From the NCBI GenBank assembly GCA_026387255.1, contig JAPLMA010000060.1, positions 465 to 64,464 on the forward strand: DNA of 64,000 nt. The letters are read 5' to 3'. The stretch is from Candidatus Omnitrophota bacterium. Lineage in GTDB: Bacteria > Omnitrophota > Gorgyraeia > Gygaellales > Profunditerraquicolaceae. The notes beneath the pieces were generated by a model that was given only the letters and a program-made list of their open reading frames with translations, made no database searches and had not been told where the DNA came from. The translations under genes and the position numbers were made by a program. Shown one piece after another: positions 7,636 through 56,856 of this stretch (positions within the stretch are counted from its first letter, which is position 1; each line of letters opens with the position of its first letter).

Positions 7636-8799
7636 ATGTCTATTAAAGGTGATTATTACCAAATTTTAGGAATTCCTAAGACTGCTAGTCCGGATGAAAT
7701 TAAAAGGGCCTATCGCGAGATGGCGCTTAAATTTCATCCGGACCGCGTGCCGGCGGAAGAAAAGAAAGCCGCGGAGGAGAAATTTAAGGGAATTTCTGAA
7801 GCATATGCTGTGCTTTCGGATTCTGCTAAGCGTGATCTCTATAATCAATACGGACATTCCGGTATTGACCAGAAATACGCCCAAGAAGATATTTTTAAGG
7901 GTGCTGATTTTAGTAGTATTTTCAGAGAAATGGGTGGTGGATCTGGAGGCTCCGGGAGTATTTTTGAGGAGCTATTCGGTGATATGGGGTTTGATATCTC
8001 TGGATCAAGGCAGTCCAGATCGCAATCTGCCCGGCGGCGCGGCAGGGATTTACAGATTGCGATTGAAATTTCCTTGGAAGAAGCAGCTGTAGGCGTAGAA
8101 AAGATTATTACTGTGCCACGCTATGAAACCTGTACAGTTTGTTCAGGTAGTGGCGCTAAACCCGGCTCTAAGCGGACGGTTTGTTCACAATGTAAAGGAG
8201 CAGGTAAAACAGTAGTTTCAAATGGTTTTTTCCAAATGGCTCAAACCTGTTCGCGCTGTAGCGGTGAGGGCTCAATTATTCAAACTGCCTGTGCGGATTG
8301 CCGGGGAGAAGGCAGAGTTAAAGTTACTAAAAAGATAAAAGTTAAGATACCCGCCGGAGTTGATAATGGCTCTCAACTACGCGTACGCGCAGAAGGCGAA
8401 GCGGGATTAAATAGCCGGGGAGATTTATATGTAGTGATAGAGGTTAGAGAGCATGCGATTTTCCAACGGCATCATAATGATATTGCTACAGCGGTGAATA
8501 TAAGTTTGGCCAAAGCTATTCTGGGTGGCGAGGTTGAGGTTCCGGCTTTAGACGGAAAATTAATGATGAAGATACCCGCGGGTACTCAATGTGGAAAAAC
8601 TTTCCGTCTTAATGGTAAAGGTATACCGGACTTACATTCTCGGGATATGGGTGATGAATTAGTCAAAGTTGATATCCAAATTCCTACCAGGTTGACTGCG
8701 CAACAGAGGCAATTGATAGAGGAGTTTGCCCGCTTAAACGGTGAAAATTTAGGAGCTAAGGAAAACTTTACGGATAAGTTTAAGAAAACATTTCGCTAA
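7636..8799 (+). CDS. dnaJ: Chaperone DnaJ
   Basis: J-domain with HPD, a G/F-rich region, four CxxCxGxG zinc-finger repeats and a C-terminal domain. Confidence 0.95.
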   Translation: MSIKGDYYQILGIPKTASPDEIKRAYREMALKFHPDRVPAEEKKAAEEKFKGISEAYAVLSDSAKRDLYNQYGHSGIDQKYAQEDIFKGADFSSIFREMGGGSGGSGSIFEELFGDMGFDISGSRQSRSQSARRRGRDLQIAIEISLEEAAVGVEKIITVPRYETCTVCSGSGAKPGSKRTVCSQCKGAGKTVVSNGFFQMAQTCSRCSGEGSIIQTACADCRGEGRVKVTKKIKVKIPAGVDNGSQLRVRAEGEAGLNSRGDLYVVIEVREHAIFQRHHNDIATAVNISLAKAILGGEVEVPALDGKLMMKIPAGTQCGKTFRLNGKGIPDLHSRDMGDELVKVDIQIPTRLTAQQRQLIEEFARLNGENLGAKENFTDKFKKTFR

Positions 8800-8940
8800 T
8801 GTCATTCCTATCCTCGATTAGTACATTTAAGGGCAGGTTTTATTGATACAAATTGTCATCCTCGCGGAAGCGGGGATCTAAAAGAAATAGATTAACGTTT
8901 TCACGGGAATGACGAATATGCGCGGAGAAAAAAGGAAAAT

Positions 8941-9204
8941 ATGCCTACTTATGAATATGAATGCTTAGCTTGTAAAAATAAATTTGAAATTTTACAGAGT
9001 ATAACCTCTCGGCCTAAAATTAAGTGCCCGAAATGCGGTAAGAAGTTAAAAAAGTTAATTAGTAGCACGGGGGGTTTTATTTTTAAGGGAAAAGGTTTTT
9101 ACGCTACAGATTATAAGAAAACAGATAAATCCGTAAATAGTTCTTCGCAGGCCGCTTGTTCTAAGGCTAATGCGGGATGTGCGGGTTGCCCAGCTCACAA
9201 GTAA
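8941..9204 (+). CDS. FmdB-family zinc-ribbon protein
   Basis: MPTYEYEC..C...CPKCG pattern typical of the FmdB putative regulatory zinc ribbon. Confidence 0.6.
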   Translation: MPTYEYECLACKNKFEILQSITSRPKIKCPKCGKKLKKLISSTGGFIFKGKGFYATDYKKTDKSVNSSSQAACSKANAGCAGCPAHK

Positions 9205-16900: not shown

Positions 16901-19104
16901 TGATATATAAATTTAAAAATTTCCATCCGTTTAATTCGATAATCTTTGGTCTGATATTGGTTTTTGTTTTATGGGTTAACCTTGTTTCTGCCCAAGCCGC
17001 TAAAGAATCACCAATGGTGATTAATGGTGATAATGTAGAGTACTCTGCGGATAACAAAGAAGTGGTGGCGACCGGTAATATTGAAGTTATTTATAAGGGC
17101 ACCAAGCTAACTTGTAATAGGTTAAAGGTTAATATGCAGACAAAAGAAGGCTTGGCTGAGGGTAATGCTAGAATCCAGGACGACAAGGGGGTGGTTACCG
17201 GAGAAAAGATTATCTATAATTTTGCGAATAAAACCGGGATTATCTCTAATGCTGATTTTCGCGCTAATCCCTATTTTGGCAAAGCAAAAAAAGTTGAAAA
17301 GTTAAGTGAGAGTGAATTTGTGGCTAAGAGAGGCTATTTTACTACTTGTAGTTTAGACCATCCACATTATCGTTTTGCCGCAAAGAAGATTAGTGTATTC
17401 CCGCAAGATAAAATGTTAGCCCAGCAAGCTACGCTTTATCTGGGCACGGTACCGTTATTCTATCTTCCACAATTTAACTATTCAATGAAAGAGCCGATTA
17501 TGCATGTACAGGTTGAGCCGGGTACACGTAAGGATTGGGGCCCGTATCTTTTGAGTGCTTGGCGTTATAATATTACGGACAATGTGAATGGTTTGGCTTT
17601 TCTGGATTATCGCAATAAATTAGGATTAGCAGAAGGTTTCGAACTAAATTATATAAAAACCCCAGTTGGCAAAGGCGATTTTAAATTTTATTATACGAAT
17701 GAAAAACCTGCTGATCAACCAAAAGGAGCGCCAACGGAGTTTCAGCGTTATTTTATGCGTTGGCGCCATAAGTGGAATATTGATGAGCGCACGAATGTTA
17801 CTGCGGAATTCTTTAAGATTACCGATAAAAGAAGAAAGAATGACCCAAACTACCCGAGTAGTCGTAATTTCCTGCAAGATTATTTCTTTCGCGAATACGA
17901 AAAAGATGTCCAACCATTAAGTTACGCATTATTTCATCACGCTTTTAATTATTCCAGTTTGGATCTGCTTCTGCAAGTGCGCACTAATCATTGGTTTAAC
18001 CAAGTAGAAAAAAAGCCGGAGATAAATTACAATCTGCCAAGTTTACAGCTAGGAGAAAGCCCGCTTTATTTTGAAAGTATAAACCAATTAGGCACTTATA
18101 ACGTAAAGGGGAATGCGCAGGGTAATGATTTAACCGATACCCGGCTGGATACTAAAAATACGGTTTCTCTACCCACCAAAATTGCTTTTATTCAATTTAG
18201 ACCTTTTGTTTCCAGCCGTCAGACTTTTTATGATAAAGGCGCAAATGGCCAGAGCGGAATTATACGTACAATTTTTTATAGCGGCGCGGATATGAGTACT
18301 AAGTTTTACCGTATTTTTGATGCCAAAACAAACTTTCTTGGTTTAGATATTAATGGTTTACGCCACATTATTACTCCTACGGTGGGGTATTTGTATACAC
18401 ATCCGCCTACTATTCCCAATAGTAATATAAAACAGATTGATAGCGTGGATTCTATAAATCGCGGCAACACTGCTGCTTTAAGTTTATCCAATAAATTACA
18501 AACTAAGCGTAGTGGACAAAGCGTGGATTTGGTGGATTTTTTGATCACCACTAATGTTGTGCTCGATCCTAAAACAGGAGATAACGCATTTCTTACTCCC
18601 CGCGCAGGAGAGAGCTTGAAAGATAATTTTTCGGATATTCTCTTTAAATTAAAAATATTACCATATTCCTGGATGAGATTTGAATCTGACGCTACTTTTG
18701 CGCATGCAGATCATACGAGTGCGAATTATAATAAATTTTCACTAGCTAGTTATGACCTAAATTTTGATTTGGGCAAAAATGGCTCATTTTCTCTTGGCCA
18801 GCGTTATGAAAGAAAAGGTAAGAATGAAGTTACTCTTGGGTATAATTTTCGTCTGAGCCCCAAGTGGAAATTTGGTATTTATGAACGGTATAACTTTAAG
18901 AAGTCTAGTTCTCTTGAGAGAGGCTTCCAGGAGCAGGAGTATACTTTAACCCGTGATTTGCACTGTTGGGAATTGGATATTACCCTGAACAAAAAAGAAA
19001 TTTCCGGTACCACCATATTCTTTACTTTTAGGCTTAAGGCCTTCCCTGAGAATGAATTTGGATTTGATCAGGCGATGACTAAGAAGAAGTCCGGTACACA
19101 ATAA
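16900..19104 (+). CDS. lptD: LPS-assembly outer-membrane protein LptD (OstA family)
   Basis: Signal peptide, an OstA-like N-terminal domain and a large C-terminal beta-barrel-like region; 734 aa. Confidence 0.6.
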   Translation: MIYKFKNFHPFNSIIFGLILVFVLWVNLVSAQAAKESPMVINGDNVEYSADNKEVVATGNIEVIYKGTKLTCNRLKVNMQTKEGLAEGNARIQDDKGVVTGEKIIYNFANKTGIISNADFRANPYFGKAKKVEKLSESEFVAKRGYFTTCSLDHPHYRFAAKKISVFPQDKMLAQQATLYLGTVPLFYLPQFNYSMKEPIMHVQVEPGTRKDWGPYLLSAWRYNITDNVNGLAFLDYRNKLGLAEGFELNYIKTPVGKGDFKFYYTNEKPADQPKGAPTEFQRYFMRWRHKWNIDERTNVTAEFFKITDKRRKNDPNYPSSRNFLQDYFFREYEKDVQPLSYALFHHAFNYSSLDLLLQVRTNHWFNQVEKKPEINYNLPSLQLGESPLYFESINQLGTYNVKGNAQGNDLTDTRLDTKNTVSLPTKIAFIQFRPFVSSRQTFYDKGANGQSGIIRTIFYSGADMSTKFYRIFDAKTNFLGLDINGLRHIITPTVGYLYTHPPTIPNSNIKQIDSVDSINRGNTAALSLSNKLQTKRSGQSVDLVDFLITTNVVLDPKTGDNAFLTPRAGESLKDNFSDILFKLKILPYSWMRFESDATFAHADHTSANYNKFSLASYDLNFDLGKNGSFSLGQRYERKGKNEVTLGYNFRLSPKWKFGIYERYNFKKSSSLERGFQEQEYTLTRDLHCWELDITLNKKEISGTTIFFTFRLKAFPENEFGFDQAMTKKKSGTQ

Positions 19105-34024: not shown

Positions 34025-34098
34025 GGGCCCATAGCTCAGTCGGTTAGAGCAGTTGACTCATAATCAATTGGTCCGGGGTTCGAGTCCCTGTGGGCCCA
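34025..34098 (+). tRNA. tRNA-Met (anticodon CAT); elongator or Ile2-lysidine type not resolved
   Basis: Folded manually. Acceptor GGGCCCA/TGGGCCC, D-stem GCTC/GAGC, anticodon stem GTTGA/TCAAT, loop CTCATAA, T-arm CGGGG-TTCGAGT-CCCTG, discriminator A. No CCA is encoded. Confidence 0.85.
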
Positions 34099-34227
34099 TT
34101 AATAAGCTTGTTGGAACACAATTAGAACCCCGGAACAAAAAGGGGTGTGGGGAAAAATTTTCCCCACGTATTCGGGGTAACAGTCCCGATGGAACATCGG
34201 GACGCCATAGGGGCAGAGCCCCTTTGG

Positions 34228-34261
34228 CAATTGGTCCGGGGTTCGAGTCCCTGTGGGCCCA
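34228..34261 (+). repeat. Perfect 34-nt copy of the tRNA-Met 3' portion (positions ~40-73)
   Basis: caattggtccggggttcgagtccctgtgggccca is identical to 34065-34098. Confidence 0.9.
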
Positions 34262-34272
34262 GAATATATTAA

Positions 34273-34346
34273 GGGCGATTGGCTCAGTTGGTTAGAGCGC
34301 CACATTCACATTGTGGATGTCAGAGGTTCGAGTCCTCTATCGCCCA
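34273..34346 (+). tRNA. tRNA-Val (anticodon CAC)
   Basis: Acceptor GGGCGAT/ATCGCCC, anticodon stem CCACA/TGTGG, loop TTCACAT, T-arm AGAGG-TTCGAGT-CCTCT, discriminator A. Confidence 0.85.
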
Positions 34347-34456
34347 TTATTAAAAAATAAATGGTTGATTCGAGTTTTGTCACAATTGATTTTAACGGGA
34401 ATAGAGCGTCCGCCACTAAAACGTTGGCGGACGGGCGCCAAAGTATTAGTGGCGCC

Positions 34457-34513
34457 CGCCACATTCACATTGTGGATGTCAGAGGTTCGAGTCCTCTATC
34501 GCCCATTATTAAA
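34457..34513 (+). repeat. Perfect 57-nt copy of the tRNA-Val 3' portion (anticodon arm to 3' end plus 8 nt of flank)
   Basis: Identical to 34298-34354. It creates the spurious ORF 34311-34583. Confidence 0.9.
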
Positions 34514-35241: not shown

Positions 35242-35654
35242 GTCATTTAGAAATTTACATTGATGGCGCATCCAAGGGTAACCCGGGGCATAGCGGGGTG
35301 GGAATAGTAATTTATCAAGAGGGTTTACGGATTAAGAAGATCTCAAATTATATCGGCACGGCTACGAACAATGTTGCTGAATACACCGCTCTAATTTATG
35401 CACTCGAAGAAGCATTATTATTAAAAGCTAAGAGTTTAAAAATTAATACCGATAGCCAGCTTTTAGCCCGGCAGTTAAATAAGATTTATAAAGTTAAACA
35501 TGCTGGTATTATAAATCTATATAATCGAGCGGTGCATCTTTTAACGGGTTTTGAAAAAGTTTTAATTAAACATATACCTCGAGAAGAGAACAGTTTGGCG
35601 GATAAATTGGCAACTGAAGCAGTTAAAGTAGCATTAGGGAAATCTTTGATATAA
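35238..35654 (+). CDS. rnhA: Ribonuclease HI
   Basis: IYIDGASKGNPG..GVGIV with the RNase H fold and length. Confidence 0.85.
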   Translation: MSHLEIYIDGASKGNPGHSGVGIVIYQEGLRIKKISNYIGTATNNVAEYTALIYALEEALLLKAKSLKINTDSQLLARQLNKIYKVKHAGIINLYNRAVHLLTGFEKVLIKHIPREENSLADKLATEAVKVALGKSLI

Positions 35655-36041
35655 GCAGGCAGAAGGTGGCTGCCCGTTATTAATTTAATAACGGGAGGAA
35701 AGTCCGGGCTCCAGAGGATAACGTAATGGGTAACCCCCATCCCGTATATATAATGTATACGGAGGATTTCCGCCACAAATCGTGGTGGACTCGCCAATTT
35801 TTTTGGCGGGAGAGCCACAGAGACGAGTATCCGCGCAAGTGGAGAGGTGAAACGCGGCAATCTCTACGTGGAGCAAAGTAGAATAGGAGATGAGTGCTGA
35901 TCCAGCGCGTTTCCCGTTTTAGGCGGGAAGAAATCTCGGGTAAACTGCTAAAGTTACCGTGGTAACGCGGGAATTGAGAGGAATAGCCACTAATTGATGT
36001 GCAGGCAGGCATCAAGACAGAACCCGGCTTATTCTGCTTGC
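35655..36041 (+). ncRNA. rnpB: RNase P RNA (bacterial type A)
   Basis: P4 strands GGAAAGUCCGGGCUCC (35695-35710) and ACAGAACCCGGCUUA (36017-36031). P1 is formed by 35655-35664 pairing with 36032-36041. GC is elevated relative to the surroundings. Confidence 0.9.
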
Positions 36042-36081
36042 TTTAAATAAAAAGTAAAATAGGGAAAAATGAGGAGGAGTT

Positions 36082-50204: not shown

Positions 50205-53200
50205 TTATTTGAGGAATATGTCAATCTTTTCAACTTGGCGCGATCTTACTTTTTCGGCTAGAAAAGGTGGAATAGTTGCAGAATTAATTTCTGTTGGGCA
50301 GTGATCTTCGAAAATTACAATTTTAGCTATTTTTACTGCGTTCCTGCCAAAAGTATTTTTTCTCTCAGGATTATAATATGTCACAAGAATACGGCTCAAG
50401 AAATTAAATGAATATTTACCATTTTTAGTAAACATCCATCCGGCTAAATTCGGTTTAAACTCTAAATTTAGCTTGCCATGATTATCTAAAACAAACGGAT
50501 TAATGCCAATATTCATGACTAACCAGATATGCAAGAATTCTGCGGTTGATCCAGAGAGCCGAGCGACAAAACCATTTCCATGTAGATTTTTGTCTATAAA
50601 AGCACTACTAACTAGGAATGAAGAGTTCTCCAGTATACTGCGGCCGTATCTTTGTGGGTTTTGAAAAGGGATAAGCACGTTTTTAAATTCTGCATAGAAC
50701 TCTTCGATTAAGCCGGTTTTTAATAACTCTAAAATATATTTATACTCCATATGCAGCCAGATAGATTCATTTTCTAACCATCCAGGGGTAAATACCCGGC
50801 ATCTGCCTATTTCTTCCGGCATACTGTTAAGTGAAGCAGTTACCTTATACATCTTTAGTTTTTTATCAAAAAGCTCACTTTTCTTGGTTGCCTGGTAAAG
50901 TTGAGCAGCTTGTTTTAATTCTTGTGATAACCTTAAGGCGTGCATCTGTCCCGCTAAGAATAGAGGAGCAGGCCTTTGAGTAAACTTCTTAGGCTTTATA
51001 TAATGATCTTTTACTAAATCATATTGGGTAACTTCATTAATAAAATATGAGTAGTATACGCCTTGGGCTTGATTAAAAGCCTTAGCTAAACCGGCTTCAA
51101 CCTTTTTTAAAGCTGCATCTAAAAAAGAAGTTAGATCAGTAATCGGAATATTTATTGAATTCCCAGAGAAGCCTAAGCGCGTATTATGCCGATATTCTTC
51201 TTTGGCGTTGTTACTTCTATCCCAATAACTAAAAGTTTCTTCCGCGAATAGATTAGCCAATTCTTTGATAAATTTAGCTACTTCTTCAGCAATCTCGATC
51301 TGATTAGCTTGAGAGTTCTCTAAAGCTCTTCTTATCATTTTTAACAAACGTTTTAATTCAAACGTTTCGCAACTTGATGAACCAAAAAGAGCAGGTAAAC
51401 CATTAAGCGAATCAAACCAGTTAGGTTTATTCGCCTCCATTTCAATACCCACGCCAAAAGGATCCAGTGAACCCAGTTTATTTGCTGCTAAACACAAAAG
51501 TTTAGCCATTAAAGTAGTATAATAAATTTCACCAGATCCATATAGTGTGCGTAGAAGGTGGGGATTATTTAAACGTTTAGCTAAGAGCTCCTTTTTTTCA
51601 GCATCCGCGATGAGAGAGTGTAACTGCCGAGGCTTGCCATTGTAAAGAAGGTATTTTTCACTACGCGGCCTGACTAATTCAATATTATCGTAAAAAGAGA
51701 AAACCTTTTTGTCAAAGAAAAGCTCGTGGAGTTTTTCTGGGTAAAGATCAAGATAACGCTCAATTAAATCTAAGTTATAAGTCCAGTGGTCCGTCCAAAA
51801 TCCTTCGGCATGTTCAGCTTCTTGAGATTTCGCCGAAGAGGTAAGGATAATATCCAGAAGCTCATCATAAGGGGCTTGGACTGTAATTTTATTTTCTTCA
51901 ATAAAAAAGATAAGCTCACCAGGGGTAAAAGGTTTTTTAAAAAAATGCCCAAGCTTCTCGATGGCTTCTTTTTTAAGCATCCCACCTAAGAGCTTAATTA
52001 AGTCAGCGTTATTATTTAAAAGAAAGTTTTCGCCTTTAATTACCAGTGGATTAAAACCATCGGACTGGATTAAGTTCATAAAGAAAACTATATTTTCATC
52101 TTTAATCTCCGGATTAAACCAAACATCATTACGTCGATTTTGGTTGGTATCCCTGTAGTTACCGTTACCTTGAGAGAAATACGTAGGAGCTAATACAAAT
52201 TTATTGTAATCTCTTTCCAAATCACCGTGTTTACGGGAATAGAGATAAAAAACAGTTTTAGCGGATTCATCTTTCCCCGCCTCTGGCGGGATCCCGCCAG
52301 AGGGTTTAAGAGATGGGCGGGAAAAAACTTCTGGATAGCCACCGCGCATAATGTTATCTAAATAAGTTTGGCTAGTATAACAGTCCAATGCTTTGGAACT
52401 GCTGGTAGTAGCGATATCATTTTTAAGTTTAGCGATAAGCTCATTGTTTTGGGCAAACTTTTTCTGGATATAACCGAATTTCGTAATCTTCTTGACCGAT
52501 TGATTTAAAGTCTTACTATCACGAGCTTGGCCGATTACCGAATAAAAAGTTTGTGCAGTTCGTGGGAGTAGTTTTAAATTTAATAGCAGTAATGCACTGG
52601 GAGTTTTGCTTCTGGTTATCTGTAAAGAAGGATAAGTAAAATTACTCTTTGCTAGGAATAAAGAGGGGTAAGAAAAATCAGTGACTGCGCCAAAAACAGT
52701 CTCTGGATCTACAATCGGCCGGATGAGTTTTGTGGTTGTGCCGTTAAAATTGAAACTTAGATAAAAATTGCCTCCATCAATATGCACAACTTCCGGCCGA
52801 TCAATTGGATCAACTTCCAATTTATAGAAGGGGATATCGTTATCTAGGTTATCAATACTCATCCAGGCCTCAATAGTGCGGCCAAGTTTTTTTAAGAAAA
52901 AATTATGGGTACCAAAAGGGACAATCTGAGGTAGGCCATCAATAAGCTGTATGTCTTTTAGCTTATTACCGGTATTCTCAATACTTACTGTGCGGCTCAA
53001 ACCAGCATAGGTATCATTAGGAATATTAAAATATTCAATCCTTATTTTTATCCCTAATGTAAAATTTTGTTCCTCTAGGATCAGCGCGCTTGAGCTCATG
53101 CGCATAGAATTAAGTGTATGGTATTTTAAGTTAGTGTAACCATTATGAAATGGCTCATAGTAGATGGAGGTATCTGGAGATTTTATTTTTATAAAAGTAC

Positions 53201-53462
53201 GAAAACCATGACTACCGACAAACTGCCAGGCTTTATTCGCGGGAAAAAATTCTAAAATAGCATGGTCTTTATCCTTGATACCAAAACTAGAAATACACTG
53301 GCCACGATTAACGTAGAAAACCCACATGGGAATCCCGTATTTACCAGCAATGCCGGGGAAAAAATTAGCAAAAGGCTTAGCGTAATTATAATTCTCAATT
53401 ACAAATTCACCTTGTTGATTTAAATAATATTTGGCTTTCAATTGATTAGTTTTTGTTTTCAT
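50205..53462 (-). CDS. Large (1085 aa) putative glycan phosphorylase / (alpha/alpha)6-barrel glycoside hydrolase-like protein (GH94/GH36-superfamily-like)
   Basis: Size and a GNYRDTNQN motif reminiscent of the RDxxQD region of cellobiose-phosphorylase-type enzymes. The assignment is tentative. Confidence 0.35.
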   Translation of the reverse strand: MKTKTNQLKAKYYLNQQGEFVIENYNYAKPFANFFPGIAGKYGIPMWVFYVNRGQCISSFGIKDKDHAILEFFPANKAWQFVGSHGFRTFIKIKSPDTSIYYEPFHNGYTNLKYHTLNSMRMSSSALILEEQNFTLGIKIRIEYFNIPNDTYAGLSRTVSIENTGNKLKDIQLIDGLPQIVPFGTHNFFLKKLGRTIEAWMSIDNLDNDIPFYKLEVDPIDRPEVVHIDGGNFYLSFNFNGTTTKLIRPIVDPETVFGAVTDFSYPSLFLAKSNFTYPSLQITRSKTPSALLLLNLKLLPRTAQTFYSVIGQARDSKTLNQSVKKITKFGYIQKKFAQNNELIAKLKNDIATTSSSKALDCYTSQTYLDNIMRGGYPEVFSRPSLKPSGGIPPEAGKDESAKTVFYLYSRKHGDLERDYNKFVLAPTYFSQGNGNYRDTNQNRRNDVWFNPEIKDENIVFFMNLIQSDGFNPLVIKGENFLLNNNADLIKLLGGMLKKEAIEKLGHFFKKPFTPGELIFFIEENKITVQAPYDELLDIILTSSAKSQEAEHAEGFWTDHWTYNLDLIERYLDLYPEKLHELFFDKKVFSFYDNIELVRPRSEKYLLYNGKPRQLHSLIADAEKKELLAKRLNNPHLLRTLYGSGEIYYTTLMAKLLCLAANKLGSLDPFGVGIEMEANKPNWFDSLNGLPALFGSSSCETFELKRLLKMIRRALENSQANQIEIAEEVAKFIKELANLFAEETFSYWDRSNNAKEEYRHNTRLGFSGNSINIPITDLTSFLDAALKKVEAGLAKAFNQAQGVYYSYFINEVTQYDLVKDHYIKPKKFTQRPAPLFLAGQMHALRLSQELKQAAQLYQATKKSELFDKKLKMYKVTASLNSMPEEIGRCRVFTPGWLENESIWLHMEYKYILELLKTGLIEEFYAEFKNVLIPFQNPQRYGRSILENSSFLVSSAFIDKNLHGNGFVARLSGSTAEFLHIWLVMNIGINPFVLDNHGKLNLEFKPNLAGWMFTKNGKYSFNFLSRILVTYYNPERKNTFGRNAVKIAKIVIFEDHCPTEINSATIPPFLAEKVRSRQVEKIDIFLK

Positions 53463-53484
53463 TTAAATTAAGTTAATTATCAGT

Positions 53485-53512
53485 ATTTTACACATTTTCC
53501 TGGGCTTGTCAA
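53485..53512 (-). promoter_or_regulatory. Minus-strand promoter TTGACA, 16 nt, TAAAAT for the 1085-aa gene
   Basis: Hexamers read on the reverse complement. Confidence 0.5.
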
Positions 53513-53572
53513 CTTAATATGTTACGGCTTAAATTACAGCTAAACACATCGCAAATAGCAGCTAAACACATC

Positions 53573-53600
53573 GTAGGGGTCAGGCATGCCTGACCCCTAC
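53573..53600. repeat. 28-nt perfect palindrome gtaggggtcaggcatgcctgacccctac (REP-like element, intergenic copy)
   Basis: Seen directly. It is preceded by a direct repeat cagctaaacacatcg present twice (53537-53551 and 53559-53573). Confidence 0.85.
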
Positions 53601-53634
53601 AGGGATAATTCCATCCCCTTAGCCTAAGCGCTTA

Positions 53635-53663
53635 TTGACTTTTAAGAGAAAGTTTGTTAAAAT
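53635..53663 (+). promoter_or_regulatory. Promoter TTGACT, 17 nt, TAAAAT for gatCAB
   Basis: Read directly. Confidence 0.5.
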
Positions 53664-53684
53664 ATTTATTAATTTGGAGGAACA

Positions 53685-53972
53685 ATGTCAATCGATAAAG
53701 AAACAATCAGGCATGTTGCGCATTTAGCGCGTATCGAGTTGCAGCCTAATGAGTTAGAAAAATTGTTCGGAGAATTGCATGAGATATTAGGTTTTATTGA
53801 TAAACTTAGCATTTTAAATGTAGAACAGATTAAGCCTACCAGTCATATTTTACCCATCAGTAACGTGTTGCGGGAAGATGAGCTTCATGTTTCTTTGAAT
53901 TCGGATAAAGCTTTGGAAAATGCCCCGAGTAAAAAGGGAAACTTTTTCAGTGTCCCAAAAATAATAGAATAA
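53685..53972 (+). CDS. gatC: Glu-tRNA(Gln) amidotransferase subunit C
   Basis: 95 aa with an N-terminal VAHLARIEL motif, sitting before gatA. Confidence 0.9.
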   Translation: MSIDKETIRHVAHLARIELQPNELEKLFGELHEILGFIDKLSILNVEQIKPTSHILPISNVLREDELHVSLNSDKALENAPSKKGNFFSVPKIIE

Positions 53973-53974
53973 TT

Positions 53975-55432
53975 ATGGAATTAAATCAACTCACTGCTCA
54001 CGAACTATTGGAAAAACTTAAGGCCCAGCAGACGACTCCTGAGGCCATTCTGGACTCGCTTTATGCGCGTATACAGAAAATCGAACCTCAGGTTAAGGCG
54101 TATGTTAGAGGGCAGGCATGCCTGCCCTCTACATCATCACAGGCAGACCTGCCTTCTGTAGGGGACAGGCATGCCTGTCCCCTACGGGGGTTACCGATTA
54201 CGATCAAAGATAATATCTGTACTGAAGGATTACCTACTGAATGTTGTTCAAAAATCCTCCAGGGTTTTCGTCCACCGTATGATGCTACGGTAATTGATAA
54301 ATTAAAAAAAAGTGGTGCCGTAATTTTTCCCTTAAAAGCTAACATGGATGAATTTGCTTTTGGTTCATCTACAGAAAATTCCTATTTTGGGCCAACGCGT
54401 AATCCCTGGAATCTAGATTATGTTCCCGGGGGTTCTTCTGGAGGATCTGCTGCTGCCGTAGCTAGCGATGAAGCGATTTGGGCTTTAGGAAGCGATACCG
54501 GCGGTTCAATACGCCAGCCAGCATCTTTTTGCGGAGTGGTCGGATTAAAACCGACTTATGGACGTGTTTCGCGTTTTGGACTCATTGCTTTTGCTTCCAG
54601 CCTTGACCAGATTGGGCCGATCACTAAGGATGTCCAAGATGCGGCAATTTTAACTGGGCTGATCAGCGGATATGATCCTGGGGATTCAACTTCAGTAAAT
54701 CAGGATGTTCCAGATTACACTAAAAGCTTAACCGGCGATATCAAGAATTTAAAGATTGGGATACCTAAAGAGTACTTTATTGCGGGGATGGACGAGGAAG
54801 TTAAAACGATTATCCAAGAGGCGGTAAATAAACTTAAAGATTTAGGCGCACTTGCTAATTCGGTATCCTTGCCGCATACAGAATACGCTGTACCGGTTTA
54901 CTACATTATCGCTACGGCTGAAGCCAGCTCAAATTTAGCCCGGTTTGACGGAGTACAATATGGATATCGGGCGAGTTCGGATAATTTAATCCAAATGTAT
55001 AAATTAACTCGCGCGCAAGGTTTCGGCCAAGAAGCTAAACGTAGGATCATCTTAGGAACTTTTGTTCTATCGCATGGATATTATGACGCGTATTATTTAC
55101 GCGCTTTAAAGGTGCGCACACTGATTAAGCAGGATTTTGATAAAGTTTTTGGCGAATTTGATTGTATCGTTGCTCCAACCTCTCCCACCAGTGCCTTTAA
55201 AATTGGCGAAAGGGCCCAGGATCCGCTCTCGATGTATCTTTCTGATATCTATACGATATCCGCAAATTTGGCGGGGATACCGGCGATATCTATTCCTTGC
55301 GGTTTTACAAAAAAAGGTTTGCCCGTCGGTTTACAGATTATGGCTAAACCGTTTAATGAAGCGATGCTTTTTAGAGTAGCGCATACCTTTGAACAAAATA
55401 CAGATTGGCATAAATTTAAAACCAAACTATGA
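53975..55432 (+). CDS. gatA: Glu-tRNA(Gln) amidotransferase subunit A
   Basis: Amidase signature GGSSGGSAAAVA and GSDTGGSIRQPA; 485 aa. Confidence 0.95.
   Translation: MELNQLTAHELLEKLKAQQTTPEAILDSLYARIQKIEPQVKAYVRGQACLPSTSSQADLPSVGDRHACPLRGLPITIKDNICTEGLPTECCSKILQGFRPPYDATVIDKLKKSGAVIFPLKANMDEFAFGSSTENSYFGPTRNPWNLDYVPGGSSGGSAAAVASDEAIWALGSDTGGSIRQPASFCGVVGLKPTYGRVSRFGLIAFASSLDQIGPITKDVQDAAILTGLISGYDPGDSTSVNQDVPDYTKSLTGDIKNLKIGIPKEYFIAGMDEEVKTIIQEAVNKLKDLGALANSVSLPHTEYAVPVYYIIATAEASSNLARFDGVQYGYRASSDNLIQMYKLTRAQGFGQEAKRRIILGTFVLSHGYYDAYYLRALKVRTLIKQDFDKVFGEFDCIVAPTSPTSAFKIGERAQDPLSMYLSDIYTISANLAGIPAISIPCGFTKKGLPVGLQIMAKPFNEAMLFRVAHTFEQNTDWHKFKTKL
54107..54185 (+). repeat. Two perfect palindromes (24 nt at 54107-54130 and 28 nt at 54158-54185) inside gatA, translated in-frame
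   Basis: agagggcaggcatgcctgccctct and gtaggggacaggcatgcctgtcccctac, the same family as 53573-53600. They encode ...RGQACLPSTSSQADLPSVGDRHACPLRG... Confidence 0.85.
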
Positions 55433-56856
55433 AATATCAAACCGTTATCGGCCTAGAAGTTCATCTGCAGCTCAATACTAAAACTAAAGCATTTTGTGGT
55501 TGCTCGACGGATTTCGGAAAAGCCCCTAATTCTAATGTTTGTCCGGTCTGCCTGGGGTTTCCCGGTTCACTGCCAGTTTATAATCGGCAGGCTCTAAATT
55601 CTGCGATTAAGTTAGCTTTGGCTTTTAACTGTCAAATTCAAGAACATACTAAATTTGATCGTAAAAATTATTTTTATCCGGATTTGCCAAAAAATTACCA
55701 GATTTCACAATTTGATTTACCATTATCGCGAAACGGATATCTGGATATTTATACTCAAAACTTACCTAAGCGTATCGGGATTACCCGGGTGCATTTAGAG
55801 GAAGATGCTGGTAAGCTCATTCACGAAACAGGGTGTAGCCTAGTAGATTTTAATCGTACCGGAATTCCCCTCCTGGAAATTGTCAGCGAGCCGGATTTAA
55901 ACAGCCCGAGCGAGGCCTTTGATTACCTAAATAGTTTAAAAAGTATTATTGAATATCTAGATGTATCAGATTGCGATATGGAGAAAGGTTCTTTGCGTTG
56001 TGATGCCAATATTTCTTTACGGCTTTTAGGGGCTAAAGAACTAGGCGTTAAAACCGAACTAAAAAATATGAATTCTTTTAAAGGGGTAAAAGATGCTTTA
56101 ACTTTTGAGGTAGAGCGCCAAACCCAACTCTTGGAAACAAACCAAGAGCTGGTTCAAGAGACCCGGCTTTGGGATGTAGAAAAGGCAGTGACGGTAGTAA
56201 TGCGCACCAAAGAAGGGGCAAAAGATTATCGATATTTTCCGGATCCGGATTTAACCGTTTTTATTATTGAGGAATCCATGATTGCTCAGATAAAAGCGCA
56301 GTTACCAGAGCTACCTCAGGAAAAAATGCGACGTTTCGTTAAAGAGTACGGATTAACGGAATATGATGCAAAGATTTTAGTGAGCTCTAAAAATGATGCG
56401 CAGTTTGCCGAAAATTGTATTCAGAATTACCCGGGTGAAGATAAGAAAGAAATAGTTAATTGGTTAATTGGCCCGTTATTATCCGAAGCTAATTTACGAA
56501 AAGTAAAATTACATGCGTTAAATCTTAATACAAATGAATTGATTAGCTTGATTGGTTTTGTGCAACGACAGGAAATTTCCTATCTTTGCGCTAAGAACGT
56601 ATTAAGCCAGTTGATTGATACTGGCAAAACTACGCAAGATTTAATTCAGGAAGGTAATTTGCAACAGATATCTAATGCTGATGCACTGTCTGAAGTAATT
56701 GAAACAGTTATCCATGAAAATGCAAAATCGGTGAGTGATTTTAAAGCGGGCAAGACTAACGCACTAATGTATCTGGTTGGACAGGTAATGAAGAAAAGTT
56801 CTGGCAAAGCTAATCCTAAAGTGGTCGGAGATTTAGTAAGGCGGAGGCTGAGTTAA
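55429..56856 (+). CDS. gatB: Glu-tRNA(Gln) amidotransferase subunit B
   Basis: GLEVHLQL N-terminus and a GatB/YqeY C-terminal domain. Confidence 0.95.
   Translation: MKYQTVIGLEVHLQLNTKTKAFCGCSTDFGKAPNSNVCPVCLGFPGSLPVYNRQALNSAIKLALAFNCQIQEHTKFDRKNYFYPDLPKNYQISQFDLPLSRNGYLDIYTQNLPKRIGITRVHLEEDAGKLIHETGCSLVDFNRTGIPLLEIVSEPDLNSPSEAFDYLNSLKSIIEYLDVSDCDMEKGSLRCDANISLRLLGAKELGVKTELKNMNSFKGVKDALTFEVERQTQLLETNQELVQETRLWDVEKAVTVVMRTKEGAKDYRYFPDPDLTVFIIEESMIAQIKAQLPELPQEKMRRFVKEYGLTEYDAKILVSSKNDAQFAENCIQNYPGEDKKEIVNWLIGPLLSEANLRKVKLHALNLNTNELISLIGFVQRQEISYLCAKNVLSQLIDTGKTTQDLIQEGNLQQISNADALSEVIETVIHENAKSVSDFKAGKTNALMYLVGQVMKKSSGKANPKVVGDLVRRRLS

Follow-up and report, generated by a model that had tools for sequence, protein, structure and literature searches.

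We found that the hypervariable loop of GatA in this Omnitrophota bacterium is composed wholly of three units of a short, GTAG-headed palindrome of the REP type. Our preferred reading, to which we give a probability of about 70%, is that these are REP copies made by a RayT-type transposase and carried as selfish or neutral elements in a loop of GatA that tolerates them. The features concerned are given below by their positions in the window, the whole 64-kb stretch of DNA that was analysed; the palindromes are listed without a strand.

53573..53600, no strand: intergenic REP copy, a perfect 28-nt palindrome, GTAGGGGTCAGGCATGCCTGACCCCTAC
54106..54131, no strand: intragenic REP unit 1, a perfect 26-nt palindrome, TAGAGGGCAGGCATGCCTGCCCTCTA, translated R-G-Q-A-C-L-P-S-T
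54140..54154, no strand: degenerate REP unit 2, with the core CAGGCAGACCTG at 54140-54151, which has 2 mismatches against the family core
54158..54185, no strand: intragenic REP unit 3, a perfect 28-nt palindrome, GTAGGGGACAGGCATGCCTGTCCCCTAC, translated V-G-D-R-H-A-C-P-L-(R)
54110..54181, plus strand: GatA residues 46-69, GQACLPSTSSQADLPSVGDRHACP, the entire hypervariable loop, made up of the three REP units
53635..53663, plus strand: sigma-70-like promoter match for gatCAB, TTGACT-17-TAAAAT with TG
53485..53512, minus strand: sigma-70-like promoter match for the divergent 1085-aa gene, TTGACA-16-TAAAAT (context)
53685..53972, plus strand: gatC, 95 aa (PF02686 on orthologues)
53975..55432, plus strand: gatA, 485 aa, the host ORF
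52280..52303, no strand: a second perfect palindrome, CCTCTGGCGGGATCCCGCCAGAGG, of another, unrelated family (a parallel case)

Direct reading of the DNA confirmed both 28-mers of the original prediction, at 53573-53600 and 54158-54185, as perfect palindromes. The middle copy, given there as a 24-mer at 54107-54130, is indeed a palindrome inside gatA, but it is a perfect 26-mer that extends one base further on each side. The degenerate unit at 54140-54154 was absent from that earlier list and is the fourth unit at this locus. It retains a small 6-bp hairpin, AGGCAG-ac-CTGCCT at 54141-54154 (read directly and seen in the RNA fold), and agrees at 15 of 18 positions with the first 18 nt of the right half of unit 1. 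The starts of the three intragenic units are spaced 27 and 26 nt apart. The copies at 53573 and 54158 are headed by GTAGGGG, and unit 1 by GT-T-AGAGGG. Chance would give 0.11 occurrences of the core CAGGCATGCCTG in the 64 kb; we counted 3, a number that no shuffle reached. When up to 3 mismatches are allowed, the full pattern is also found 3 times in the window, where 0.00 were expected. Beyond the gatCAB copies, all of which lie within 613 bp, the window holds no further GTAG...CTAC palindrome. The intergenic copy sits in a block of ~70-90 nt that, by alignment, is missing from the three nearest relatives (L203, L204 and L001). This block is flanked by divergent promoter-like sites, one facing the 1085-aa gene and the other gatCAB, a position from which the copy is probably not transcribed. 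The gatCAB promoter sequence, which lies outside the REP, is invariant in all four aligned relatives.

These palindromes belong to a large family. Its consensus is GTAGGG-NN-CAGGCATGCCTG-N'N'-CCCTAC, 28 nt long and fully symmetric, with NN always compensated; the GTAG pairs with the terminal CTAC, and the whole 28-mer is a single stem. A scan of one genome per species returned at least 119 stretches. Among the matches listed, Omnitrophota account for 38 stretches and about 20 further phylum-level groups for the remainder; near-identical 28-mers and RayT relatives occur in Omnitrophota, Patescibacteria, Planctomycetota, Nitrospirota, Chloroflexota and Spirochaetota, among others. Full GYAGGG...CCCTRC arms are present in 91 copies among the matches listed; all 91 begin with G[TC]AGGG, and 85 are perfect palindromes. 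GTAG-palindromes in the same listed loci, including those with other 12-nt cores, are exactly 28 nt long in 99 of 115 cases. The 28-nt palindrome has a GC content of 57-71% in AT-rich genomes, and the sequence flanking the copies shows no conservation. Individual MAGs among the matches listed carry copies on at least nine contigs (JAYRHV01) or at least eight (JAHFHB01), and the 28-mer is present in assemblies from many projects, including on contigs of 0.4-0.7 Mb. The proposal that this is a REP-like family thus stands, on its GTAG head, its GC-rich palindrome, its dispersal in many genomes and its link to a RayT-type transposase.

Searches for carriers of the palindrome gave 0 matches in 2.9 million viral contigs and no real match in 72,556 plasmids; RayT homologues were found on only four replicons, all large and non-mobilizable. 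Rfam returned nothing over the palindromes at E <= 1, nor at gathering thresholds, and a literature search on the core sequence returned only polyomavirus primer papers. Matches to a looser pattern in sphingomonads, Erwinia, Novosphingobium and Cyclobacteriaceae were set aside as unrelated: they are 20-23 nt long and have no GTAG arms, and some lie beside an IS3-type integrase.

Unbiased clustering of the ORFs in the 119 listed loci yielded one recurrent non-housekeeping family, a RayT-like Y1 transposase. It comprises nine ORFs in eight loci, with fragments in three more, or 11 of the 119 listed loci, an association that is partly circular since the RayT genes themselves contain the palindrome that was searched for. 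The ORFs match NCBIfam NF047646 (REP_Tyr_transpos) with E-values of 1e-14 to 1e-17 and scores of 54-64 bits, below the equivalog cut-off of 80 bits, and PF01797 (Y1_Tnp) scores above gathering in five of the seven tested. They share a PNH[IV]H motif followed downstream by ...IREYI.NNP, the Tyr of which would be the counterpart of E. coli Y115. Their homologues are named 'REP element-mobilizing transposase RayT' in public sources. The RayT-like gene holds the same palindrome in frame in its own ORF, directly after the HUH strand, and additional copies surround the RayT-like genes in L040, L068, L037 and L108. We compared the embedded REP with nearby REPs of other types in three loci, a co-variation test that was only partly informative: in L205 the embedded copy is alone within ~10 kb upstream and 7 kb downstream, in L206 a perfect-palindrome scan detected neither an embedded copy nor, within 10 kb, one of the same type, and in L108 same-type copies flank the RayT gene. 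E. coli TnpA-REP requires a 5' GTAG and a hairpin, and cleaves at CT (PMC3479197). By likeness to that enzyme, the CT of the CTAC tail, which pairs with the AG of GTAG, is suggestive of a candidate RayT cut site. No RayT homologue was found in the 64-kb window or beside gatA in any relative.

In GatA, residues 45-72 read RGQACLPSTSSQADLPSVGDRHACPLRG, the in-frame translation that had been predicted. Unit 1 shares its left arm with the native V-R-G-Q codons; in relatives these read AGG GGG CAG or AGG GGT CAA. The right arm of the unit is exactly complementary to this non-consensus left arm. At the other end, the last codons of unit 3 supply the conserved Leu70 and the next GGG the conserved Gly72; L70 and G72 are the only residues of this peptide conserved in the clade. 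Six residues past the REP-derived segment lies K78 (54206-54208) of the IKDN amidase-signature motif, which we take to be the catalytic lysine from established knowledge of amidase-signature enzymes. The loop occupies approximately the position of residues 46-72 of S. aureus GatA (2DF4_A). Its hypervariability suggests that it is surface-exposed; a structure model of GatA built from a 21-sequence alignment was unusable (mean pLDDT 44.9). As RNA, the intragenic 106-nt stretch folds into very stable hairpins (-59.4 kcal/mol, z = -6.4 against shuffles).

Exact-sequence look-ups of GatA, GatC and GatB returned no record. The nearest GatA orthologues are 88% identical, 477 aa long and without the palindromes; the nearest relatives, at 12-16% DNA divergence, have no copies and retain the same promoter and operon. 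Between AYVR and GLP the loop is 26 aa long here versus 18 aa in 81 of 109 delimitable matches, in which its length spans 9-31 aa. This clade lacks the canonical ELALxQAxxAD helix. The segment had been described as roughly of native length; this is right insofar as it equals the canonical helix-loop of GatA from other phyla, but in the nearest relatives the loop is shorter by 8 aa (24 nt). At the same place, other relatives carry a hairpin ATTCCCGC-ttgc-GCGGGAAT, (GAGAACCC)x3.5, (CTACGAA)x4 or a palindrome with an 11-bp stem. The 18-aa loops of relatives were also considered as decayed REPs, and local alignment of all 16 NN variants against shuffles gave p-values of 0.04-1.0, which are not significant; in the three closest relatives the match to the REP arm covers the first 8-9 nt only.

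In one non-sister Omnitrophota lineage (L207/P0035), a GatA protein of 477 aa has this REP too, with site and frame unchanged. Its gatA holds a perfect 28-mer and a half copy, with boundaries and frames as in the gatA of the window. L207 differs by 26% at the DNA level and clusters with L127, which has no REP; it is an independent assembly, seen in two samples. The insertion is therefore not unique to this genome.

We propose that a RayT-type Y1 (HUH) transposase would make the copies and keep them uniform, with hairpins of single-stranded DNA as its substrate. In gatA, a cluster of three units, two perfect and one decayed, fills the variable loop just before the catalytic-lysine strand. The cluster most likely persists because the loop is permissive, the 28-mer can be read without a stop codon in two of its three frames, and selection would have retained only variants with a length that is a multiple of three; with the canonical helix gone in this clade, the loop may accept almost any sequence or length. 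For GatA the REPs most likely have no function, and are selfish or neutral passengers that get translated. The native codons TAT GTN AGR GGN CAR resemble the GTAGGGGNCAGG arm of the REP, and this mimicry probably favoured landing or nucleation at the gatA site. The REP, position and frame shared with L207, from a non-sister lineage, would follow from such a preference.

Genes other than gatA also carry this 28-mer in frame, namely those for Tgt, PrmC, CysG/HemD, a tRNA U5-methyltransferase, a GT2 glycosyltransferase, radical-SAM proteins and a CheR-response-regulator protein; in a PurL case (L014) the palindrome is near the N terminus and may precede the true start. The net gain is 24 nt for gatA, 1 aa for Tgt and 5 aa for PrmC, and the arms overlap native codons. 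None of the three is a clean +28-nt event, so that simple cut-and-paste insertion does not explain them. At the orthologous site in Tgt, the palindromes have differing cores at constant length between conserved outer arms, as in L054 (AGGCATGCCT) and L208 (GGTCGCGACC). The unrelated palindrome at 52280 offers a parallel: it lies within an in-frame insertion of 11-12 aa (…RPSLKPSGGIPPE…) in the 1085-aa gene (50205-53462, minus strand), and its right arm is native sequence. That in-frame insertion of palindromic elements is rare outside Rickettsia, as had been suggested, overstates the case, given the 28-mer in Tgt, PrmC and CysG/HemD and the examples in PMC3733652, which include in-frame intragenic GTAG/CGTC REPs of Opitutus terrae, Thauera, Xanthomonas, Stenotrophomonas and others.

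Several of these observations could be read differently. The gatA palindromes may have formed in place: template switching, or short-patch conversion with other REPs as donors, would have perfected native sequence resembling half a REP, and the loop would have been overwritten in the process. The overlap of unit 1 with the V-R-G-Q codons and the exact complement to its non-consensus arm would fit, as would the end of unit 3 on the Leu70 codon, the core differences at constant length in Tgt, the near-neutral lengths of the Tgt and PrmC cases and the native right arm at 52280. However, the 12-nt core is identical to that of a widespread family and would still require an outside template, the relatives' loops show no significant overall likeness to the REP, and we found no biochemical precedent in the literature examined; we regard this route as unlikely. 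We think it quite unlikely that selection maintains the hairpins for regulating gatCAB, to pause ribosomes or stabilise mRNA in gatA and to serve upstream as a protein-binding or supercoiling site. The stability of the 106-nt fold, the clustering of every copy in the 64 kb at gatCAB and the occupied site in L207 speak for such a role, yet the nearest relatives keep promoter and operon without any copy, the upstream copy is probably untranscribed, the very same 28-mer is found in unrelated contexts across more than 20 phylum-level groups, and Rfam gives no family match.

Recruitment of the REP-encoded peptide as a working part of GatA, for example to restore the P-L-x-G motif and the canonical loop length, is very improbable. 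The P-L-R-G of unit 3 is closer to the canonical PLTG than are the LLKG or FLKG of the nearest relatives, and the loop has the canonical length, but close relatives manage without the peptide, clade conservation is limited to two residues, the remaining Cys- and Pro-rich peptide has no counterpart, and the same peptide is found in unrelated enzymes. An assembly or sequencing artefact is scarcely credible: although palindromic repeats can confuse assemblers, the frame is intact over 84 nt, gatC and gatA are collinear with those of relatives, the independently assembled L207 has the same arrangement, and the 28-mer recurs in many projects' assemblies and on their long contigs. Translated REP copies of RayT origin, tolerated in a permissive loop, remain our preferred explanation. 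Against it stand the lack of a RayT homologue in the window and beside gatA in relatives, the confinement of all copies to 613 bp, the partly circular RayT association, the paired GTAG head and the insertions that are not clean +28-nt events.

The family resembles the GTAG REPs associated with RayT, such as the REP/BIME of E. coli, the REPINs of Pseudomonas and the SMAGs of Stenotrophomonas, in being a short GC-rich palindrome with a GTAG(G) start (PMC2817692; PMC3733652; PMC3479197). It is further like them in forming sub-families by compensated stem changes, in being dispersed and in occurring in pairs or clusters; in other genomes it adjoins a Y1 HUH transposase that matches REP_Tyr_transpos, and some of its copies are intragenic and in frame. 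It differs in that the GTAG of the 28-mer pairs with CTAC, whereas in the definition given in PMC3733652 the GTAG is unpaired and outside the stem. It also has no loop beyond the central 4 nt and a fixed length of 28 nt. REP/RAYT systems as described are mostly lineage-specific and vertically inherited, whereas near-identical copies of this family occur in more than 20 phylum-level groups, its RayT gene has a REP in its own ORF, and its RayT scores of 54-64 bits fall below 80. Unlike a high-copy dispersed REP population, the window holds copies only within 613 bp and none elsewhere in its 64 kb. They are not REPINs in the sense of Bertels and Rainey: copies are mostly single 28-mers that are self-reverse-complementary, with orientation undefined, and the gatA cluster has three tandem units.

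The closest parallel for the intragenic copies is in Opitutus terrae (Verrucomicrobia, PVC superphylum), where singles, dimers and clusters of REPs lie in frame in housekeeping genes and encode ~10-30 aa (PMC3733652, Figure 7). [quoted passage not shown] Unlike the O. terrae cases, the arms of the gatA REPs overlap conserved native codons, and the site is shared by two non-sister lineages.

Like IS200/IS605 elements and PATEs, the system would involve a Y1 HUH transposase, a DNA hairpin with a 4-nt guide and single-stranded DNA, RayT being the presumed enzyme here. Those elements have two different subterminal hairpins around a cargo, whereas a single hairpin constitutes the entire element here. 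The palindromic elements of Rickettsia (RPE-1 and others) are also palindromic repeats that are tolerated in frame in protein genes; RPE-1 elements are ~100-150 bp long and are not known outside Rickettsia. The unit here differs in its 28 nt, its Omnitrophota host and its unrelated sequence, and RPE-1 has no known link to GTAG or RayT; the two share in-frame insertion behaviour only, and we do not place the family in the RPE class. PMC3733652 terms the Rickettsia elements 'longer palindromic insertions'.

The gatA case itself is ordinary, a further example of documented in-frame intragenic REPs, an event that is unusual but known. The family is more informative: most accounts of REP/RAYT systems so far concern Proteobacteria and present them as lineage-specific, with vertical inheritance. 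Three of its features we did not find described in the literature: the full symmetry, the embedding of the REP in the RayT gene and the exchange of cores at orthologous coding sites. As a tentative suggestion, double-headed 28-nt REPs and a RayT that carries its own REP could form one system that rewrites REP sites and GTAG-arm mimics by constant-length core exchange; the loops of GatA and Tgt would be repeatedly overwritten in frame, tracking the active REP type, and the system would have crossed >20 phyla without detectable phage or plasmid carriers. For annotators, Cys/Pro-rich peptides of the form 'VGxRHACxL / RxQACLxPT' in MAG proteins are repeat-derived. How REPs form and are homogenised is a question raised by Di Nocera et al. 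(in PMC3733652) and by Messing et al. (PMC3479197), and the RayT-embedded REP, together with the core swap at an orthologous coding site that keeps length and frame, provides concrete substrates for biochemistry on REP formation.

Reading the sequence from 53300 to 55400 confirmed the three perfect palindromes of the original prediction, the middle one being 26 nt long rather than the 24 nt claimed, and revealed a decayed fourth unit:

53573-53600, intergenic REP, perfect palindrome GTAGGGGTCAGGCATGCCTGACCCCTAC
53685-53972, gatC
53975-55432, gatA (485 aa)
54106-54131, REP unit 1 in gatA, perfect 26-nt palindrome TAGAGGGCAGGCATGCCTGCCCTCTA
54140-54151, decayed fourth unit between the intragenic copies, core CAGGCAGACCTG, hairpin AGGCAG/CTGCCT
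54158-54185, REP unit 3 in gatA, perfect palindrome GTAGGGGACAGGCATGCCTGTCCCCTAC
55429-56856, gatB

Because the decayed unit sits between the intragenic copies, unit starts are spaced by 27 and 26 nt; GatA residues 45-72 read RGQACLPSTSSQADLPSVGDRHACPLRG. The 12-nt core occurs three times in 64 kb against 0.11 expected and the full palindrome pattern three times against 0.00, and a whole-window scan found no GTAG...CTAC palindrome of any kind elsewhere.

That these palindromes form a REP-like family was borne out by a scan for AGGG-N0-2-CAGGCATGCCTG-N0-2-CCCT in one genome per species, which found copies in at least 119 stretches of other genomes. Thirty-eight of the stretches listed come from Omnitrophota MAGs; further hosts listed are Patescibacteria lineages, Planctomycetales, Nitrospirota, Chloroflexota, Spirochaetota, Zixibacteria, Goldbacteria, Marinimicrobia, Desulfobacteraceae, Sulfurovum and others, and the non-Omnitrophota matches include contigs of 0.4-0.7 Mb. 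We found no carriers among 2.9 million viral contigs (phages) or 72,556 plasmids. Among the copies listed, the arms are complete in 91, and 85 are perfect 28-mers, most commonly GTAGGGAACAGGCATGCCTGTTCCCTAC; the NN pair of the 28-mer is compensated in every case, the flanks show conservation only of a T at position -1 and an A at +1, and nine copies form the tip of longer palindromes that are not themselves conserved. GTAG-palindromes in the listed loci are exactly 28 nt long in 99 of 115 cases, and about 30 have other 12-nt cores. One frame of the 28-mer contains TAG and two are open, encoding VGNRHACSL and REQACLFPT; each open frame is used by one of the perfect copies in gatA.

We clustered all ORFs of at least 80 aa from the 119 listed loci. 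The only recurrent non-housekeeping family comprises nine ORFs at eight loci, with fragments at three more. Its members match Pfam Y1_Tnp and NCBIfam NF047646 (REP-associated tyrosine transposase; E 1e-14 to 1e-17), the latter at 54-64 bits, under the 80-bit equivalog cut-off, and have more than 5,700 homologues, which several sources label 'REP element-mobilizing transposase RayT'. Palindromes flank the RayT-like genes at two of these loci, L040 (at 2776, 3097 and 3467) and L068 (at 4312, 4514 and 4827), and the RayT-like gene of a third, L108, is flanked by palindromes of its own core type; the association is partly circular because RayT ORFs themselves carry the palindrome, as in the following loci and among proteins P0121-P0240:

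L040:2773-3351, RayT ORF with embedded palindrome
L068:4561-5097, RayT ORF with embedded palindrome
L069:6781-7416, RayT ORF with embedded palindrome
L205:10001-10537, RayT ORF with embedded palindrome, seen in the DNA too (15-bp arms)

Unexpectedly, the GTAG-palindrome peptide embedded in this RayT subfamily comes in frame immediately after the HUH strand (PNH[IV]HGII.I). It matches strictly in 94 of the 120 best homologues, nearly all the others having a degenerate or duplicated form; its core varies by lineage (VGNRHACSLQ, VGNAYMRSLQ, VGNGLKPFPT, VGNKNFCSLQ, VGTEHCSVPT and others). In the REP/RAYT literature examined, REPs flank or overlap the ends of RAYT genes, and we found no description there of a REP inside a RAYT ORF. 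E. coli TnpA-REP requires a 5' GTAG and a hairpin, and cuts at the CT base-paired to the AG within GTAG (PMC3479197). In the 28-mer this CT would be supplied by the CTAC tail, which may be the mechanistic reason for its full symmetry.

Other coding sequences also contain the element. In the listed loci, 40 of 128 copies lie within stop-free frames of at least 150 aa, and for many of these Pfam confirms that the surrounding gene is real (Tgt, CysG/HemD, tRNA U5-methyltransferase, GT2, PrmC, radical-SAM, CheR-response regulator); a copy in PurL (locus L014) is near the N terminus and may precede the true start. Against solved structures, the net gain is 1 aa in Tgt (...faGDRHACPLlfgi... vs ...rk-EQAENAALfgi...) and 5 aa in PrmC. 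Close relatives of the Omnitrophota Tgt (among P0241-P0275), 85-89% identical and all 371 aa long, have differing palindromic peptides at one site (GDRHACPL, GGRHACPL, GDGRDRPL, GARHAAPL, GAVSDRPL, GANNYSPL). The tgt DNA reads GCAGGGGAC-AGGCATGCCT-GTCCCCTAC at locus L054 (3890-3913) and GCAGGGGAC-GGTCGCGACC-GCCCCCTGC at locus L208 (tgt, 8053-9168), the core being exchanged and the arms, length and frame retained.

We aligned the window's DNA with its nearest relatives (L203, L204, L001). The intergenic REP lies within a block of ~70-90 nt that all three lack, directly upstream of a conserved promoter-like TTGACT-17-TAAAAT (53635-53663) and downstream of a divergent promoter-like TTGACA-16-TAAAAT (53512-53485); lying between these sites, this copy is probably untranscribed. 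The block also holds two copies of a 15-nt direct repeat, CAGCTAAACACATCG (53537-53551 and 53559-53573), which abuts the REP: the second copy ends with the G that begins the REP's GTAG. The window's gatA is a net 24 nt longer than that of the 477-aa relatives. In unit 1 the left arm, GTT AGA GGG CAG, falls on the native V-R-G-Q codons (AGG GGG CAG in L204, AGG GGT CAA in L203), and its right arm is the exact complement of this non-consensus left arm. Unit 3 runs as far as the conserved Leu70 codon; conserved Gly72 is encoded by the next codon but one. Both outer arms thus overlap conserved codons, and the whole variable loop (residues 46-69) is REP sequence. The native GTN-AGR-GGN-CAR codons may serve as a landing or nucleation site for the REP. 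A 33-aa ORF of ~100 nt is called between gatA and gatB in L204 (11431-11532); the window and the other relatives instead have a 4-nt overlap of gatA and gatB.

GatA is most similar to Candidatus Omnitrophota proteins, which reach 88% identity and in most cases have 477 aa; their alignment is hypervariable from AY[VA]R to G[LF]P. The loop, proposed to be of roughly native length, is 26 aa in the window vs 18 aa in 81 of the 109 relatives (among 120 listed) in which it could be delimited, with a range of 9-31 aa. GatA of other phyla has a conserved helix-loop, ELALxQAxxAD...PLTG, at this position, and the helix is absent from the entire Omnitrophota clade. Six residues separate the end of the REP segment from K78 in the IKDN motif, expected to be the catalytic lysine as established for amidase-signature enzymes. 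In S. aureus GatA (2DF4_A) the segment corresponds approximately to residues 46-72. Different repeats occupy the same loop in other clade members: a hairpin repeat, ATTCCCGC-ttgc-GCGGGAAT, encoding ...DSRLRGNDN... in L002 and L003; a palindrome with an 11-bp stem in L001; (GAGAACCC)x3.5 in L133; and (CTACGAA)x4 plus AAGAACCCCGGGTTCTT in L134 and L135. The loop thus tolerates repeats. Indirectly, this suggests that it is exposed and unconstrained; the AlphaFold2 model of GatA had a pLDDT of 44.9, too low to judge exposure. The L002/L003 hairpin (GGATTCCCGC-ttgc-GCGGGAATGAC, at 540-575 in both related contigs) is widely seen and differs from the REP. The L133 and L134/L135 repeats lie ~130-210 nt into gatA and have unit lengths not divisible by three, so a change in copy number would frameshift the gene.

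Further repeats were observed elsewhere. A perfect 24-nt palindrome, CCTCTGGCGGGATCCCGCCAGAGG (52280-52303), lies in the minus-strand ORF 50205-53462, where it is part of an in-frame insertion of 11-12 aa (RPSLKPSGGIPPE) absent from the L001 orthologue. The palindrome's right arm, CCAGAGG, is native P-E codons, and the palindrome has no match in any compared locus. The Omnitrophota contig L208 holds two copies of a perfect 54-56-nt palindrome, ACCTGTCCAACTTCGCAAGTTGCCCA...TGGGCAACTTGCGAAGTTGGACAGGT (7729-7782 and 17964-18019), representing a further family of palindromic repeats. A second copy of the 3' part of tRNA-Met (caattggtccggggttcgagtccctgtgggccca, 34066-34098) is present at 34229-34261, beyond a 130-nt hairpin-rich insert (hairpins e.g. 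34147-34167 and 34183-34203). Two tRNA-Val(CAC) genes (34273-34346 and 34433-34505) have identical 3' and differing 5' halves, and only the first passes Rfam; the region 34025-34505 has the appearance of remains left by integration at tRNA genes. Two minus-strand ORF calls, 35486-35860 and 35680-36015, overlap a bacterial class A RNase P RNA (35653-36047, 160.7 bits) and so are spurious.

The gatA site is also occupied in a non-sister Omnitrophota lineage: the 477-aa GatA of L207 (P0035) contains GTAGGGGGCAGGCATGCCTGCCCCCTAC plus a right half copy, with boundaries and both reading frames identical to the window's. In a distance tree, the gatCAB genes of L207, 26% diverged from the window's, cluster with REP-less L127, and those of the window cluster with REP-less L203, L001 and L204 (12-16% divergence). 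The site may have been struck twice, or an old insertion may have decayed several times; comparing relatives' loops with the REP gave repeated decay no general support, although the three closest relatives match the REP arm over 8-9 nt at the start of the loop. The hairpins might conceivably have a regulatory role, for which we found no positive evidence, although the RNA fold is -59.4 kcal/mol (z -6.4).

The best-supported reading is that the gatA palindromes are GTAG/RayT-type REPs that a permissive loop accommodates and that are translated as part of it. In-frame insertion of a palindrome into a protein, as originally predicted, is seen in gatA; its supposed rarity outside Rickettsia is overstated, since an earlier report (PMC3733652) already describes in-frame intragenic REPs, making gatA a new example of a known phenomenon. 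The apparently undescribed and still provisional features of the family are its double-headed symmetric 28-mer, its breadth across phyla, the REP within the RayT ORF and the exchange of cores at orthologous coding sites.
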